Positions 2,661 to 49,867 of a DNA stretch of 64,000 nt are shown here, piece after piece. The DNA comes from Candidatus Nomurabacteria bacterium (GTDB lineage: Bacteria; Patescibacteriota; WWE3; UBA101185; UBA10185). The stretch lies in NCBI GenBank assembly GCA_020631855.1, contig JACKGU010000001.1, positions 231,601 through 295,600 of the forward strand. The letters run 5' to 3'. The notes below the pieces were generated by a model. That model saw only the letters and a list, made by a program, of their open reading frames with translations, did not search any database and was not told the origin of the DNA. The position numbers and the translations under genes were made by a program. Position 1 is the stretch's first letter. Each line of letters starts with the position of its first letter.

Positions 2661-2663
2661 TTT

Positions 2664-2782
2664 ATAATTTCGTTACTTAAAACTACTTGCATAAGCTAGT
2701 AGATGTAGTTTACCCAACATGTTAGGCTTTGTAATGCAAAGAAATTACAGCAAACCACCTGCATAAGCCGGCGGTAGTTGAT
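2664..2782 (+). repeat. Copy A of an interspersed ~119-bp double-hairpin repeat (starts ATAATTTCGTTACTTAAAACTAC, ends GGCGGTAGTTGAT)
   Basis: Near-identical copies at 7518-7637, 7636-7754 and 35352-35470, a partial copy at 27399-27498 and a fragment at 28249-28293. It contains two stem-loops with loop TGCRTAAGC. Confidence 0.85.
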
Positions 2783-5414: not shown

Positions 5415-7439
5415 TTATGTTACGTCGACGTCAGCATTTTTTGCATGAGTTTGAATAAATCTTTTTCTCGGAGCTACCTCTTCTCCCATCAGATTGCTGA
5501 ATACCTCGTCAGCGTGTGCGGCGTCCCCTAGTGTTATAAGCTTTAGTCTTCTAGTTTCAGGGTTCATTGTTGTATCCCAAAGTTCGTTGTCATTCATTTC
5601 TCCCAAACCCTTGAACCTTTGGATCAGGGATTTTTTTCCAATGTCAGTTTTTAAAAAAGCCTCAAGCTCTCGCTCATCTGTAATATATTGTTTGTTTTTC
5701 CCATACACGGCTTTAAATAAAGGTGGCACGGCTACATACAAGTTGCCGTTTTCTATAAGCTGCGGCATGTGTCTGAAGAAGAACGTAAGGTGTAGTGTGA
5801 CAATGTGCGCGCCGTCTACGTCAGCATCTGACATAATAATCAACTTACCGTATCTTAGTCTCGACACATCAAATTGCTCTCCAATACCGGTTCCTATCGC
5901 GATTATTAAAGGCTTAAATTTATCTGACTTAACTATTTTATCCAATCGCGCCCTTTCGGTATTTAGAGGTTTTCCAAAGACCGGCAATACTGCCTGATAC
6001 ATTCTATTTCTTCCTTGCTTGGCGGGACCTGCAGCAGAATCTCCTTCTACAATAAAAAGCTCGGTTTTTTCCGAGTTTTTTTCTGAGCAGTCGGATAGTT
6101 TTCCCGGGAGTACTCCTCCCGTATCTAATGCGCCCTTGCGAATTACGGTGTCTCTGGCTGCTTTTGCAGCAATTCGTGCTTTGAGAGCCAAAAGGTTCTT
6201 GTCAATTATTGCTTGTGCGTCTTTTGGATTTTCTTCCAGATAAACTTCGAGTGCCTCTTTTGTCACTGTTTCTACTGCTGTTCTTGCTTCCGAAGTTCCA
6301 AGCTTTCCCTTTGTTTGCCCTTCGTATTGAAGTTGGGCAGAGTCAATGTTAACCGATACTATTGCGGTTATTCCTTCTTTGAGATCGTCTCCTGAAAGAG
6401 CTTCGGCCTTATCTTTTATTAAATTATGTTTTTTGGCGTAATCATTGATTGTTTTAGTTAGCGCGCTCCTGAAGCCGGTTAAATGCGTTCCCCCCTCCCC
6501 TGTTCGAAGGTGGTTTGCAAATGTTAGTACGTTTTCGGCATATGAGTTGTTGTATTGAAACGCTATTTCAACATCGATATTCTCATAGTTTTTATGTATA
6601 TGGAAAATTTCCGGGTGCATAGGTTTTCGTGATCTGTTTAGAGATTTAATGTAGGCTTTTACGCCGCCTTCAAAATAGAAACAGTATCTCTGATCTGTTC
6701 TATGATCTATAATGTCAAATTTAATGTTTGCGGTTAAATAAGCGTATTCTCTTAACTGATTAACAAAAAATTTATATTTAAAATCCACTGTTTCAAAAAT
6801 GGTTTCGTCCGGTTTAAATTGCACAATTGTTCCTGACTCGGCATCCCACTCTTCCAGCTTCAAGCTCCATTCAGCATTTTTTACTTTTGAAATTGGGTTT
6901 TTAGGGTCTAGAGGCTCTACTTTTCTTAATACTTTCCCCCCGTCGGCATATTCCTGAATAACCAGCTCATCTCCTCTTTTTACAATTACTCGGCACCATT
7001 CTGAAAGTGCGTTTACTACTGAAGCACCTACTCCGTGTAAACCGCTGGATACTTTGTACCCTCCTGCACCAAACTTACCTCCTGCATGAAGCTTAGTGAA
7101 AGCAAGCTCGAGCGCCGACACACCGTAGCCCTTTTTTTCATCGTATGGTATACCTCTGCCGTTATCATAAATTGCCACTGATCCGTCTTTAAAAAACTCT
7201 ACTTTTATATAGTTTGCATACCCTGCCATTGCTTCGTCCATTGAATTGTTAACTACCTCTGTGACTAAGTGGTGCAAGCCTTGTTGCCCAGTTGAGCCGA
7301 TATACATTCCAGGCCTCTTTCTTACCGGATCAAGGCCTTCAAGAACCTGAATCTGATCAGATCCGTAGTTGTTATCCAGGTCAGCCTTTGATTTTTTTGT
7401 TTTTTCTTCTTTCGCCATTGCTTTAAGATTGTATAGCAT
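5415..7439 (-). CDS. gyrB: DNA gyrase subunit B
   Basis: GHKL ATPase and TOPRIM motifs: DPVRKRPGMYIGS, DNGRGIP, LHAGGKFG, GLHGVGASVVNALS, EGDSAAG, PLxGKxLN-like. Length 674 aa. The start may be the downstream Met (MAKEEK). Confidence 0.9.
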   Translation of the reverse strand: MLYNLKAMAKEEKTKKSKADLDNNYGSDQIQVLEGLDPVRKRPGMYIGSTGQQGLHHLVTEVVNNSMDEAMAGYANYIKVEFFKDGSVAIYDNGRGIPYDEKKGYGVSALELAFTKLHAGGKFGAGGYKVSSGLHGVGASVVNALSEWCRVIVKRGDELVIQEYADGGKVLRKVEPLDPKNPISKVKNAEWSLKLEEWDAESGTIVQFKPDETIFETVDFKYKFFVNQLREYAYLTANIKFDIIDHRTDQRYCFYFEGGVKAYIKSLNRSRKPMHPEIFHIHKNYENIDVEIAFQYNNSYAENVLTFANHLRTGEGGTHLTGFRSALTKTINDYAKKHNLIKDKAEALSGDDLKEGITAIVSVNIDSAQLQYEGQTKGKLGTSEARTAVETVTKEALEVYLEENPKDAQAIIDKNLLALKARIAAKAARDTVIRKGALDTGGVLPGKLSDCSEKNSEKTELFIVEGDSAAGPAKQGRNRMYQAVLPVFGKPLNTERARLDKIVKSDKFKPLIIAIGTGIGEQFDVSRLRYGKLIIMSDADVDGAHIVTLHLTFFFRHMPQLIENGNLYVAVPPLFKAVYGKNKQYITDERELEAFLKTDIGKKSLIQRFKGLGEMNDNELWDTTMNPETRRLKLITLGDAAHADEVFSNLMGEEVAPRKRFIQTHAKNADVDVT

Positions 7440-7517
7440 GTTGGATTATGTTTCAAATTATTGGAGTTTGCTGTAGATCGTTAGGTTTAAATGGGCAAAG
7501 AGAAAAACATGCTATTT

Positions 7518-7754
7518 TATAATTTCGTTACTTACAACTATTTTCGCAAGCTAGCAGATGTAGTTCGCACAACATGCTGGGCTTTGCAGTGCAAAGAAAT
7601 TACAGTAAGCCACCTGTGTAAGCTGGTGGTAGTTGATAATTTCGTTACTTACAACTATTTTCGCAAGCTAGCAGATGTAGTTCGCACAACATGCTGGGCT
7701 TTGCAGTGCAAAGAAATTACAGTAAGCCACCTGCGTAAGCTGGTGGTAGTTGAT
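7518..7754 (+). repeat. Tandem duplication (two copies, 7518-7637 and 7636-7754) of the ~119-bp double-hairpin repeat, immediately 5' of the gyrB start
   Basis: The two copies differ by a single substitution (CCACCTGTGTAAGC versus CCACCTGCGTAAGC). Track ORF 7491-7760 is an artefact of this repeat. Confidence 0.9.
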
Positions 7755-8483
7755 CTATGAATTTATTGTTAAAGCGAAGTATTCCAGAGCAAAGCGCTTG
7801 TTTACATTTGTGTTTTGTATCGCATCTGTTATTTCAAGTAGAGCCTCAAGACAAAGCAAATCTTTCTGTTCCATTCTCTCTTTAAGTTGGTTCCCGATTA
7901 TAGTCAGAACATCAAGTATTACATCCGCGTCTTCTTTTGAAAGTTCCTCTGCCCACTCGAGCCTTTGCTGAATTGTCATATATTGTTTTAAATCATGTCT
8001 TCCGGAAGCAGTGTTTGGTTGTTTCGGCTGTTTGTTATTTAGTTCAGAGTCTATGTTTGTTAATGTTATTAATTTGCATCTTGAGCGAACTGTTTGAAGC
8101 AATTTTTCAGGAGCGGGAGTTTCAAGTATAATAAGCATTGAGACTCCCATGTCCTCTAGTGTTTTCAGAAAGGCGTTTTGTGCTTGAACCGTCATTTTGT
8201 GGGCGCTACGAACAATAAGAGTCTTATAGCTGTAATGATGTGGTCTAAGAGTACAATATGTGTTCGCAATTCTAATTTGATCTATGCCTATGGAGTTTCT
8301 ATTGTTTTTAGGCGATATTATTAAAACATCGGGGTTGTTTTCGGGATCGGTGTGGTAGATGTCTTGTAGTAAATTATCAAGATATGTTTTGGAAGCATTA
8401 TAATTTGAACTTTGTAAAATGTGGCTACCTTTTTCCATAGATAAATTAAAGTATATATCTTTTCTTATTGCATACGTTACCAA
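7755..8483 (-). CDS. holB: DNA polymerase III delta-prime subunit-like (clamp-loader AAA+ protein with degenerate Walker A)
   Basis: AQNAFLKTLED (AANALLKTLEEP-like) and VRSRC (SRC motif). There is no GxxGxGKT. The start may be the internal Met (MEKGSH). Confidence 0.55.
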   Translation of the reverse strand: MVTYAIRKDIYFNLSMEKGSHILQSSNYNASKTYLDNLLQDIYHTDPENNPDVLIISPKNNRNSIGIDQIRIANTYCTLRPHHYSYKTLIVRSAHKMTVQAQNAFLKTLEDMGVSMLIILETPAPEKLLQTVRSRCKLITLTNIDSELNNKQPKQPNTASGRHDLKQYMTIQQRLEWAEELSKEDADVILDVLTIIGNQLKERMEQKDLLCLEALLEITDAIQNTNVNKRFALEYFALTINS

Positions 8484-26566: not shown

Positions 26567-27397
26567 ATGAAAAAAATTAACATAGATACCTTAGCGATAA
26601 AACAAATGGTGGCAAACTTTTTAGTGCCTCTGATTTCTTTAGGCCTTGTAACCGCAATAGGATTTTTAGTACTCTATCCTACTATCTCGAATAGACCTAT
26701 GTACGAAGAAAAGCTAGAGGCTTCAAGGGCATTAGATGAGCAGTTATTAACGAAGCTCGAGAAATTAAATTATCTTGTGGACTATAAGAGTGCCGTAGAT
26801 GAGAATAACTCTCTACTTTCGGATGTTTTAGCTCAAAAGCCTTTAGTTCCCGAACTTCTGACCCAGCTTGATATTATTGCAAAAGAAGCGGGCTTGGGCG
26901 TTGAAAAATTAAGTTACTCTTTTGGAGCCGGCAAAGATACCGCCGAAGGCACCTTAACAGATATAAATGTCAATATGGGGATTATTGGAACTTACGATCA
27001 ACTTGTTGCTTTTTTTAGAGCTTTAGAAAAAGCCGGACGGCTGGTTAACGTAGATAACTACAGGTACACCCTTACCGAAGATAATGCTTTGTCTATAAAT
27101 CTTACTTTTTCTTCCCCTTACGTTGATGTGAAAACCGATGCAGTTACTGATGATCCTATTGCTTTTGACATTTCTGACACTAAGTTTGTGTCGTTAATGT
27201 CATCTCTTAAAGAATTTAAGGTTTACAGAATATCTGTAGATGACTACATAGAAGTTCCTGCAACACCAGAAATTCCGACACAGCAGGGTGAGCAGCCTTT
27301 AGATGCTCCGGCAGAAGTCGGAGTACTTCAACAGCCCGGTGGTGCCGAAGCTCCGGCTCAAGTACCTGTCGTTCCGACCGAAGAGCCCCTTAACTAG
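26567..27397 (+). CDS. pilO: PilO-like bitopic protein
   Basis: Single TM segment, coiled-coil, Pro/Glu-rich C-terminal tail. Position after pilM/pilN. Confidence 0.6.
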   Translation: MKKINIDTLAIKQMVANFLVPLISLGLVTAIGFLVLYPTISNRPMYEEKLEASRALDEQLLTKLEKLNYLVDYKSAVDENNSLLSDVLAQKPLVPELLTQLDIIAKEAGLGVEKLSYSFGAGKDTAEGTLTDINVNMGIIGTYDQLVAFFRALEKAGRLVNVDNYRYTLTEDNALSINLTFSSPYVDVKTDAVTDDPIAFDISDTKFVSLMSSLKEFKVYRISVDDYIEVPATPEIPTQQGEQPLDAPAEVGVLQQPGGAEAPAQVPVVPTEEPLN

Positions 27398-27398
27398 A

Positions 27399-27498
27399 GC
27401 ATTAGCTAATAGATGTAGCTGTAGTTTACCCAACATATTGGGTTTTGCAGCGCAAAGCAATTACAGTAAACCGCCTGCGTAAGCTGGTGGTGGTTGAT
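27399..27498 (+). repeat. Partial copy (3' about 100 bp, second hairpin intact) of the ~119-bp repeat, right after the pilO stop
   Basis: GCATTAGCTAATAGATGTAG...CCGCCTGCGTAAGCTGGTGGTGGTTGAT aligns to copies A, B and E. The stem pairs CCGCC/GGTGG, which requires a G-U wobble. Confidence 0.8.
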
Positions 27499-35322: not shown

Positions 35323-35351
35323 ATTATTATTTTATCGTATCATTTAATTTT

Positions 35352-35470
35352 ATAATTTCGTTAATTAAAACTACTCGCGTTAGCTAGTAGATGCAGTTTA
35401 CTCAACATGCGGGGCTTTGCAACTTAAAGAAATTACAGCAAACCGCCCGCGTAAGCTGGCGGTAGTTGAT
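35352..35470 (+). repeat. Copy E of the ~119-bp double-hairpin repeat, 30 bp upstream of the recG start
   Basis: ATAATTTCGTTAATTAAAACTACTCGCGTTAGCTAGTAG...CCGCCCGCGTAAGCTGGCGGTAGTTGAT. Both hairpins are intact, with compensatory substitutions relative to A and B. Confidence 0.85.
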
Positions 35471-49752: not shown

Positions 49753-49833
49753 GGGGGGGGGGGGGGGCGGGGGGGGGCGGGGGGGGCCCGCCCCCCGCCC
49801 CCCCCCCCCCGCCCCCCCCCCCCCCCCCCCCCC
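49753..49833. repeat. About 81-bp homopolymeric tract: about 34 nt of poly-G immediately followed by about 47 nt of poly-C (a perfect G-run/C-run inverted repeat)
   Basis: Read directly from the sequence. It is extremely atypical for this AT-rich genome. The track ORFs encoding poly-Gly/poly-Pro here are artefacts. Confidence 0.9.
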
Positions 49834-49867
49834 GACCGGATCTCAAAAGACCCGGCCTCAGGATTCT

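Follow-up and report, generated by a model that had tools for sequence, protein, structure and literature searches.

IS608 of Helicobacter pylori and ISDra2 of Deinococcus radiodurans carry neither terminal inverted repeats (TIRs) nor target-site duplications (TSDs), and their ends are marked by subterminal hairpins, which are imperfect palindromes on one strand. In IS608, the transposase TnpA binds these palindromes on that strand (PMC3201880, PMC5934647). The left cut is made 3' of TTAC, outside the element and 19 nt 5' of the left hairpin, and the right cut 3' of TCAA, inside the element and 10 nt 3' of the right hairpin (PMC3201880). Guide sequences of four bases lie directly 5' of the hairpin feet, the left one (GL) being AAAG, which goes with TTAC, and the right one (GR) GAAT, which goes with TCAA (PMC3201880, PMC5934647). 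The contacts include the pairs A+16:T-3 and A+17:T-4, and A+42 and T+43, which directly follow the left hairpin, take part in triplets (PMC3201880, PMC5934647). The excised circle has a right-end/left-end junction, and insertion occurs on the 3' side of the target, which is not duplicated (PMC3201880, PMC5934647).

PATEs are defined by the lack of inverted terminal repeats and of target duplication, by a length too short for a transposase, by near-terminal palindromes that are alike, by a 5' distance exceeding the 3' one, and by a targeting sequence of 4-5 nt at the 5' end (PMC3119063). They have been described as minimal IS605 derivatives mobilised in trans (PMC10055086, PMC7290912) and are reported often to encode omega-RNAs (PMC10055086).

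Another group of intergenic hairpin repeats, REP/BIME, is associated with RAYT (TnpA-REP). These repeats are recognised as single-stranded DNA by a Y1 HUH enzyme; REPs are single palindromes of 20-40 nt with a 5' GTAG, usually found in inverted pairs.

Here we describe a 117-nt repeat found in a window of 64,000 nucleotides from a Candidatus Nomurabacteria bacterium, a member of the CPR/Patescibacteria. The repeat shares with IS608 and ISDra2 the lack of TIRs and TSDs and the one-strand, imperfectly palindromic subterminal hairpins. Its left-end site is TTAT/TTTAT, the counterpart of TTAC in IS608 and TTGAT in ISDra2, and its putative right cleavage site lies, as in both, inside the element and a few bases 3' of the hairpin. 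Four-base guides can be placed 5' of the feet by the same positional rule, AT follows the left hairpin, and tandem copies are joined right end to left end in the way seen in the circle intermediate. The spacings (17 and 8 nt, versus 19 and 10 in IS608) show the same asymmetry. Unlike IS608 and ISDra2, the element is only 117 nt long without tnpA or tnpB, has no sequence similarity to them, and resides in a CPR/Patescibacteria host.

The resemblance extends to the PATEs of Haloquadratum walsbyi and Geobacillus stearothermophilus, which are likewise too short for a protein, lack TIRs and target duplication, have similar near-terminal palindromes with a longer 5' distance and a short 5' targeting oligonucleotide, and form decayed, heterogeneous families (PMC3119063, PMC10055086). 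For those PATEs, related full-length IS605-type elements with matching ends are known, and none was found for the repeat studied here; the passages searched on them note no exact, repeated head-to-tail pairs, which do occur here. We hold with about even confidence that the repeat is a PATE-like, non-autonomous element of the IS200/IS605 type, gene-less, with its left and right ends fused and its copies mostly decayed.

Copies of the repeat and their genomic setting

Repeat finding, blastn and nhmmer agreed on the repeat family and on its inventory, so the family recognised in the first-pass annotation is real and, as stated there, has a single orientation. On the + strand of the window lie four complete 117-nt units, together with a copy truncated at its 5' end and a fragment of the 5' end; each of them is intergenic, and a profile search of both strands found no further copies. 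The length originally given, about 119 bp, identified the repeat unit but was slightly too long, as it took in bases of an invariant 5' flank, TT(T)AT. Including this flank, repeat finding, blastn and nhmmer place the full copies at 2661-2782 (A), 7516-7637 (B), 7633-7754 (C) and 35349-35470 (E).

Copy A occupies the spacer between gyrA (- strand) and relA/spoT (+ strand), where a TTTAT flank (2661-2665) precedes the unit proper (2666-2782, AATTTCG...GGTAGTTGAT); the last four bases of the flank, TTAT, are the putative left cleavage and target site (CL). Copies B and C lie between gyrB and holB, both on the - strand, and form a head-to-tail pair: the TTTAT flank of B (7516-7520) is followed by its unit (7521-7637) and directly by that of C (7638-7754), with a junction reading ...GTTGAT/AATTTCG and lacking TTTAT. 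The two units differ by 1 nt, and TRF reported an array at 7519-7754 with 2.0 copies, a period of 117 and 99% matches, in agreement with the initial description of this tandem. An 89-aa open reading frame runs across the pair; it is stopped in copy A and thus not conserved, and we rejected a protein-coding reading. Copy E has its TTTAT flank at 35349-35353 and its unit at 35354-35470, between recG (- strand) and a gene for a 278-aa protein (+ strand). The 5'-truncated copy D was placed at 27399-27498 by repeat finding, blastn and nhmmer and is lengthened to 27389 by local alignment; between 27389 and 27498 it covers element positions ~16-122 with a 6-nt insertion, and it separates pilO (+ strand) from trmD (- strand). 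The last codons and the stop of pilO come from its degenerate left part. Fragment F (28246 to ~28276), located between trmD and a KH-domain gene (both - strand), is made up of TTTAT and ~26 nt from the start of the left end.

Other contigs of the same Candidatus Nomurabacteria species carry nine more copies or fragments. Scanning JGI/ENA metagenome contigs with a 22-mer from the right end recovered five true loci, in the same samples as carry the host organism, and two chance matches in coding sequence (L013 and L016). Around the metagenome copies, genes for an ABC ATPase and a large surface protein form one flanking pair and those for PolA and a ClpB-like ATPase another; GroEL and glycogen synthase genes are further neighbours. 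Two more head-to-tail arrays were found, at L012 (5142-5380) and at L017 (11040-11198, with the second unit truncated). Several metagenome contigs begin or stop inside the element, as expected of a multi-copy repeat. All true matches to the right-end pattern in metagenome contigs were short, and none was a full-length IS with these ends. All retrievable strains are near-identical and carry the same copies, contigs with identical proteins all come from the same strain, and the TrmD of the nearest relative is 58% identical.

A scan of species-representative genomes with a 5' 22-mer gave five single matches, consistent with chance and none of them in the source species. Two scans of viral contigs and a blastn search of the consensus against plasmids and phages returned nothing similar, and a megablast against phages, with the first 25 kb of the window as query, gave no match. 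The genes around the copies in the window encode GyrA, GyrB, HolB, RecG, TrmD, PilB/M/N/O, RelA/SpoT and a ribosomal-protein cluster, and the window is bacterial chromosome. Neither a Y1 transposase nor genes for TnpB, RAYT or Rep were present in the window or in the annotated or scanned loci, which amount to ~110 kb of unique sequence. These data support a dispersed, non-coding, lineage-specific repeat family. DGRs, integron attC sites, CRISPR and TIGR arrays were considered and set aside, with housekeeping neighbours and no spacers or variable regions.

The proximity of copies to gyrA, gyrB/holB, recG and polA raises a reading in which the repeat would be a cis-acting module of the host (a promoter, a terminator, a protein-binding cassette or a supercoiling-sensitive cruciform), spread by recombination and kept for the regulation of neighbouring genes. 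Conserved blocks of primary sequence and -10-like hexamers on both strands of the left boundary are compatible with such a role, as is the arrangement around trmD, where fragment F keeps only the left boundary, upstream of the gene, and copy D only the right part, downstream of it. We nevertheless consider it very unlikely: the sigma-70-like promoters that serve gyrA and gyrB lie outside the element, none of the copies contains a terminator-like site, and the neighbours, which also include GroEL, ClpB-like, ABC ATPase, glycogen synthase and pilus genes, stand in all relative orientations. Moreover, the copies diverge by 15-27% without maintenance of their stems. A narrower version, a minus-strand terminator-promoter cassette, was rejected on the same promoters of gyrA and gyrB and on the copies at L012, L014 and L015, which are reversed relative to the genes.

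Hairpins, boundaries and tandem junctions

Each unit contains four local hairpins: H1, a central CCCAACATGTTGGG palindrome, the stem-loop CTTTGC-NNN-GCAAAG, and H3. The two stem-loops reported at first, H1 and H3, are thus present, and the two central hairpins have to be added to them. The left half of the unit consists of AATTTCGTTACTT, AAAA, H1 (CTACT T GC RYAA GC T AGTAG), AT and GTAGTTTA; the middle continues with the CCCAACATGTTGGG palindrome, CTTTGC NNN GCAAAG and AAATTACAG; and the right half is made up of CAAA, H3 (CCACC T GC RTAA GC Y GGTGG), TAGT and TGAT. The loops are GTAA, GCAA or ATAA and are closed by G-C pairs. The motif TGCRTAAGC, described as common to the loops, occurs exactly at four sites in the window, and the other hairpins have variants of it (TTCGCAAGC, CGCGTTAGC).

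Copy A illustrates the layout on the + strand. The putative left guide, AAAA (2679-2682), comprises the four bases 5' of the H1 foot and fits the IS608 rule with the TTAT of CL. H1 (CTACT-T-GC[ATAA]GC-T-AGTAG) follows at 2683-2702, with AT directly 3' of it, as in the consensus. The two central hairpins, a CCCAACATGTTAGG palindrome and CTTTGT-AAT-GCAAAG, extend over 2713-2741, and the conserved core AAAGAAATTACAGCAA (2738-2753) is complementary to the 5' end, TAATTTCGTT. The putative right guide, CAAA (2751-2754), is formed by the four bases 5' of the H3 foot and pairs by the IS608 rule with the putative right cleavage site (CR), TGAT, the last four bases of the unit (2779-2782), which end 8 nt 3' of the H3 foot. 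H3 itself (CCACC-T-GC[ATAA]GC-C-GGCGG, 2755-2774) includes an A·C mismatch in this copy. The same guides and right cleavage site (GL AAAA, GR CAAA and CR TGAT) are intact in copy E.

The two outer hairpins are 79% alike. Two stem pairs differ between them in a compensated way (T-A to C-G, CTACT/AGTAG versus CCACC/GGTGG), both have a T·T or T·C mismatch in the same position, and they are, judging by their sequences, paralogous. Across the copies, 84% of the H1 cells are paired.

An inverted-repeat scan of copies A and E found no TIRs, only the internal hairpins and the complementarity between the 5' end and the core. The left boundary is highly constrained: among 11 independent solo boundaries, TTAT was present in all and TTTAT in 9, and alignment of the flanks showed unrelated sequence farther upstream. 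TTAT lies 17 nt from the H1 foot and is missing at all three tandem junctions. It may be sequence of the element rather than of the target. On the right, the flanks are unrelated between loci (T, C, A, T, A, A, T, A...) and the terminal TTGAT is constant, which indicates that TTGAT is the element's own sequence and not a duplicated target; as the right flanks are also unrelated to the left one, there is no target-site duplication. The lack of TIRs, of a target-site duplication and of a nearby transposase, already noted in the first pass, was thus borne out by the inverted-repeat scan, the flank alignment and the gene annotation. A classical MITE, with TIRs and a TSD, was discarded for want of both. 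The label "REP/MITE-like" attached to the family pointed in the right direction and needs to be made more precise, because the lack of TIRs and TSDs, together with subterminal palindromes and a fixed 5' tetranucleotide, is the signature of IS200/IS605-type elements (PATEs). The reverse choice of active strand was also examined and dropped: the flanks 5' of ATCAAC... on the minus strand have no conserved oligonucleotide in common.

All three tandems (7521-7754 in the window, L012 and L017) share the junction TGAT/AATTTCG without TTTAT. In tandems of two complete units, each unit is closest to its partner (99.1% identity for B and C and 93.2% for the two units of L012, versus 73-87% otherwise), and the pair at L017 has private variants in common. 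This points to right-end/left-end junctions that were formed locally. Orientation is uniform within each contig whatever the orientation of the genes (5 of 5 loci in the window, 3 of 3 in L017 and 2 of 2 in L012), an outcome with a probability of about 1 in 128 by our count if orientation were random. Skews at four-fold sites and in intergenic DNA, which we tried as indicators of replication direction, were contradictory and weak, and tracked gene orientation.

Precise head-to-tail tandems and biased orientation would also be produced by another HUH enzyme, either in a REP/BIME-like system with a domesticated RAYT or in a non-autonomous rolling-circle element (IS91/Helitron-like), whose read-through would generate such arrays. 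The repeat has in common with REP/BIME that it is an intergenic hairpin repeat without TIRs or TSDs, abundant for the size of the genome; GTAG motifs adjoin both of its palindromes, and its 3' hairpin is subterminal, a few bases from the end. It departs from REPs in being a two-ended 117-nt unit with two palindromes in direct orientation, no inverted pairs, GTAG on the 3' side, and distinct, putative left and right cleavage sites. Furthermore, its complementarity between guides and cleavage sites at both ends follows the scheme of IS608 specifically, and no RAYT or Rep gene is found in the ~110 kb covered. We therefore regard such an enzyme as an unlikely source of the family.

Pairing and conservation across ten copies

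The first-pass annotation had read the substitutions in the stems, including some tolerated only as G-U pairs, as compensatory and hence as a sign of selection on a folded RNA. We aligned 10 full copies and counted the pairs in the four local hairpins and in the long-range helix. Standard pairs occupied 89.1% of the cells, against 26-52% when the partners were slid by 1-3 columns, and the hairpins are real. The compensation claimed for them is another matter. Shuffled alignments contained 89.4% paired cells, and 394 of 500 shuffles reached the observed value; the covariation score was 0.115, versus 0.131 in shuffles; and a single pair showed a double change, against 2.8 expected. Stems were substituted at 10.0% and unpaired columns at 11.0%. 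The H3 stems on which the claim had been based (CCACC/GGTGG, CCGCC/GGCGG and CCGCC/GGTGG) left out copy A, whose CCACC/GGCGG has an A·C mismatch, and over the 10 copies the pair in question (columns 97/112) was AU in five, GC in one, GU in one and A·C in three. In four of the metagenome copies the 5' arm of H3 is fixed by the way they were retrieved, through identity to columns 78-99; H1 and the two central hairpins, which are free of this ascertainment bias, showed no double change either. Compensatory change is thus not in excess, the pairs are not kept by compensation across the 10 copies, and selection for RNA structure is not supported.

As single-stranded DNA, the reconstructed consensus is strongly structured and folded at -23.8 kcal/mol on the + strand (z = -4.6), with z = -3.1 on the - strand, and three single copies folded as + strand RNA had z scores of -0.6, -0.75 and -2.4 relative to shuffles. 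The simplest reading is that of a well-structured master sequence from which the copies have since drifted. The lack of compensation, with stems changing like loops, is what dead transposon copies are expected to show.

Primary sequence is retained elsewhere. The best-conserved blocks are not the hairpin stems but the first ~17 nt and AAAGAAATTACAG, which are complementary to each other (TAATTTCGTT and AAAGAAATTA). A permutation test of the conserved core gave p = 0.006, a value that we discount, since four metagenome copies had been picked for their identity to that block. TATAAT spans the left boundary of all solo copies, and GATAAT is present at the tandem junctions.

This constant TATAAT keeps alive the possibility that the family is transcribed. 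The repeats could then be genes for a small structured RNA on the + strand (an sRNA or an omega-RNA-like scaffold), each with its own -10 box, for which the perfect hexamer at solo copies would serve, and with GNRA-like tetraloops, to which the GTAA, GCAA and ATAA loops with G-C closing pairs correspond. The block from the -10 box to ~+1 is among the best conserved and survives in fragments, derived cells contain slightly more G·T than A·C pairs on the + strand (27 versus 19), and the omega-RNAs reported for PATEs (PMC10055086) would provide a precedent. The element also resembles the omega-RNAs of TnpB/IscB in the right ends of IS200/IS605 elements, in that a structured non-coding region stops exactly at the right boundary and that the 5' flank TTAT/TTTAT resembles the motifs that serve as TAMs in those systems. 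Several observations nonetheless make an RNA gene decidedly unlikely. Covariation is no higher than in shuffles, stems change like unpaired columns, and on the + strand two of the three copies are no more stably folded than their shuffled versions. A -35 box is missing, and neither a canonical promoter nor a terminator-like site brackets the element. A transcript starting ~7 nt after TATAAT would not contain the 5' side of the long-range helix, which is conserved. Relative to genes the copies show every orientation, some being antisense to holB and the KH-domain gene, and truncated copies are common. Compared with TnpB/IscB omega-RNAs, moreover, TnpB is not encoded nearby, the right part measures only ~70 nt, and covariation is lacking. 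The comparison with Rfam proposed at the outset yielded nothing at gathering thresholds over the whole window (Rfam 15) and only noise for the tandem at E <= 10. A tRNA-derived SINE, which had been named as an outcome that could overturn the first interpretation, found no counterpart in our scan, which detected neither tRNA nor tmRNA.

Most improbable of all, in our view, is that the repeats still work as modules. Insertion 3' of TTTAT would create the TATAAT promoter, and the copies would supply omega-RNA-like guides to a TnpB/IscB-type nuclease or repressor encoded elsewhere in the reduced CPR genome; the proposed transcript would comprise the right-end scaffold (central hairpins, AAAGAAATTACAG core and H3) and run out into the 3' flank. 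In a variant of this idea, the copies near gyrA, gyrB, recG and polA would have been co-opted as single-strand or cruciform sensors of topology.

A PATE-like reading and its meaning for the host

The PATE-like reading draws on the anatomy of the ends. Every sequence-level feature by which PATEs are defined appears to be present in the repeat. In the consensus, the left guide AAAA can be matched with TTAT and the right guide CAAA with TGAT: all six Watson-Crick positions (C1:G2, C2:G1 and C4:G4 at each end) fit, position 3 is A/A at both ends, and the only difference between the two cleavage sites (T or G) is mirrored by the only difference between the two guides (A or C). This match was read from the consensus and from our own choice of hairpin feet; allowing for that choice and for AT-richness, we estimate the probability of such a fit by chance at roughly 0.01-0.03, which is suggestive and not proof. 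Both ends are intact, guides and cleavage sites alike, in 3 of the 10 copies (A, E and the copy at L015) and mutated in the others. We propose that most copies, which are 73-87% identical and many of which have mutated guides or stems, would be immobile fossils drifting neutrally in intergenic DNA.

By analogy with IS608, TnpA, a Y1 HUH transposase that would be supplied in trans, would bind H1 on the left and H3 on the right of the + ("top") strand. The four bases 5' of each hairpin foot would act as guides, AAAA pairing with the flanking TTAT and CAAA with the terminal TGAT. Cuts 3' of TTAT and 3' of TGAT would release the 117-nt unit as a single-strand circle with the junction TGAT/AATTTCG, and the circle would go back into single-stranded DNA on the 3' side of another TTAT. 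Head-to-tail pairs might arise when a right end is joined to the left end of a sister copy, or by re-insertion of the circle beside its own TGAT; either route would account for the tandems, because their junction is identical to the right-end/left-end junction of the circle. The uniform orientation fits a strand-specific, single-strand transposition coupled to replication (PMC5027513).

Several points count against the PATE-like reading. It does not predict the conservation of the first ~17 nt and of the AAAGAAATTACAG block. Insertion beside TGAT would require an A·G mismatch with the left guide. Lastly, neither a tnpA or TnpB gene nor a full-length partner IS was found in the ~110 kb covered or among the metagenome right-end matches.

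The repeat has practical consequences for the genomes that carry it. It fragments metagenome assemblies of the host species, has given rise to spurious gene calls, such as the "ORF" across the tandem, and has donated a stop codon to pilO. The family reveals neither a new class of RNA nor a new class of mobile element; what is unusual is the host. If the PATE-like reading is true, a CPR/Patescibacteria bacterium with a small genome has, or recently had, a single-strand transposition system of the IS200/IS605 type, whose 117-nt hairpin units would litter the spacers between essential genes (gyrA, gyrB, recG, trmD, polA and groEL). It would also be a compact natural case in which the guide/cleavage code of IS608 may be read from sequence (TTAT/AAAA and TGAT/CAAA), with predicted sites that could be tested with oligonucleotides.

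Conserved blocks of the element

The two best-conserved blocks of the element, TAATTTCGTT and AAAGAAATTA, occupy columns 5-14 and 78-87, corresponding in copy A to positions 2665-2674 and 2738-2747 of the window. These blocks are 90% complementary to each other (92% over 12 nt in copy E), and the core of the element is also able to pair with TGTAGTTT. The pairing of TAATTTCGTT with AAAGAAATTA is predicted, and the copies offer no variation that bears on it.

The element's 5' 22-mer, ATAATTTCGTTATTTATAACTA, also occurs in a contig of Parcubacteria GW2011_GWA2_36_10 (L005, 3230-3300), placed between a canonical TTGACA-17-TATCAT promoter and the apparent start of a tRNA gene. The number of matches to this 22-mer is consistent with chance. 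The succession of a -10 hexamer and AATTTCGTTA nevertheless recurs, a hint that the element's 5' block could be akin to a promoter-proximal leader.

Sequences and genes adjoining the copies

Four of the nine element loci adjoin genes of DNA topology, replication, or repair (gyrA, gyrB/holB, recG, and polA): window 2661-2782, 7516-7754, and 35349-35470, and positions 6189-6308 of contig L015. This adjacency could reflect chance, preferential insertion where DNA is single-stranded or forks stall, or co-option.

Shortly 3' of its full copy, L015 carries in minus orientation a solitary perfect palindrome, CAAA-CCACTTGC|GCAAGTG (6150-6175), similar to the right guide and hairpin of the element. It may be what is left of another copy, or a hairpin on its own. 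On another contig with a copy, L012, the truncated copy L012p is adjoined by TGGTGGAGATGGGGGGAATCGAACCCCC (approximately 1330-1410), a stretch resembling, on the opposite strand, the 3' terminus of a tRNA or tmRNA gene.

Assembly breaks and a G/C run

Metagenome and Logan contigs of the same species repeatedly end inside the element (L008, L011, L017, L021, and L022), and one contig of 27.7 kb has its two ends exactly at copy C and copy E. Assemblies of the Candidatus Nomurabacteria host are broken up by the repeat.

The spacer that separates infC from the next minus-strand gene contains, at window positions 49753-49834, a run of about 35 G (with a few C) followed directly by about 47 C (with a few G). 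Either this is an enormous inverted repeat of G and C, or it arose as an artifact of assembly or sequencing, such as a poly-G read join.

Reading frames overlapping the repeat

An 89-aa open reading frame on the plus strand (7491-7760) spans both tandem units, B and C, since the unit length of 117 nt is divisible by 3. It is a called gene in the JGI annotation of sample 3300010350. Its frame is closed by a stop in copy A, and the open reading frame is thus almost certainly spurious. At copy D, the last codons of pilO (…P L N *), including the TAG stop, lie within the degenerate left part of the copy (27386-27398), where the sequence reads CTTAACTAG; the corresponding stretch of the element is CTTAAAACTAC. 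It thus seems that this pilus-assembly gene owes its end to the repeat.
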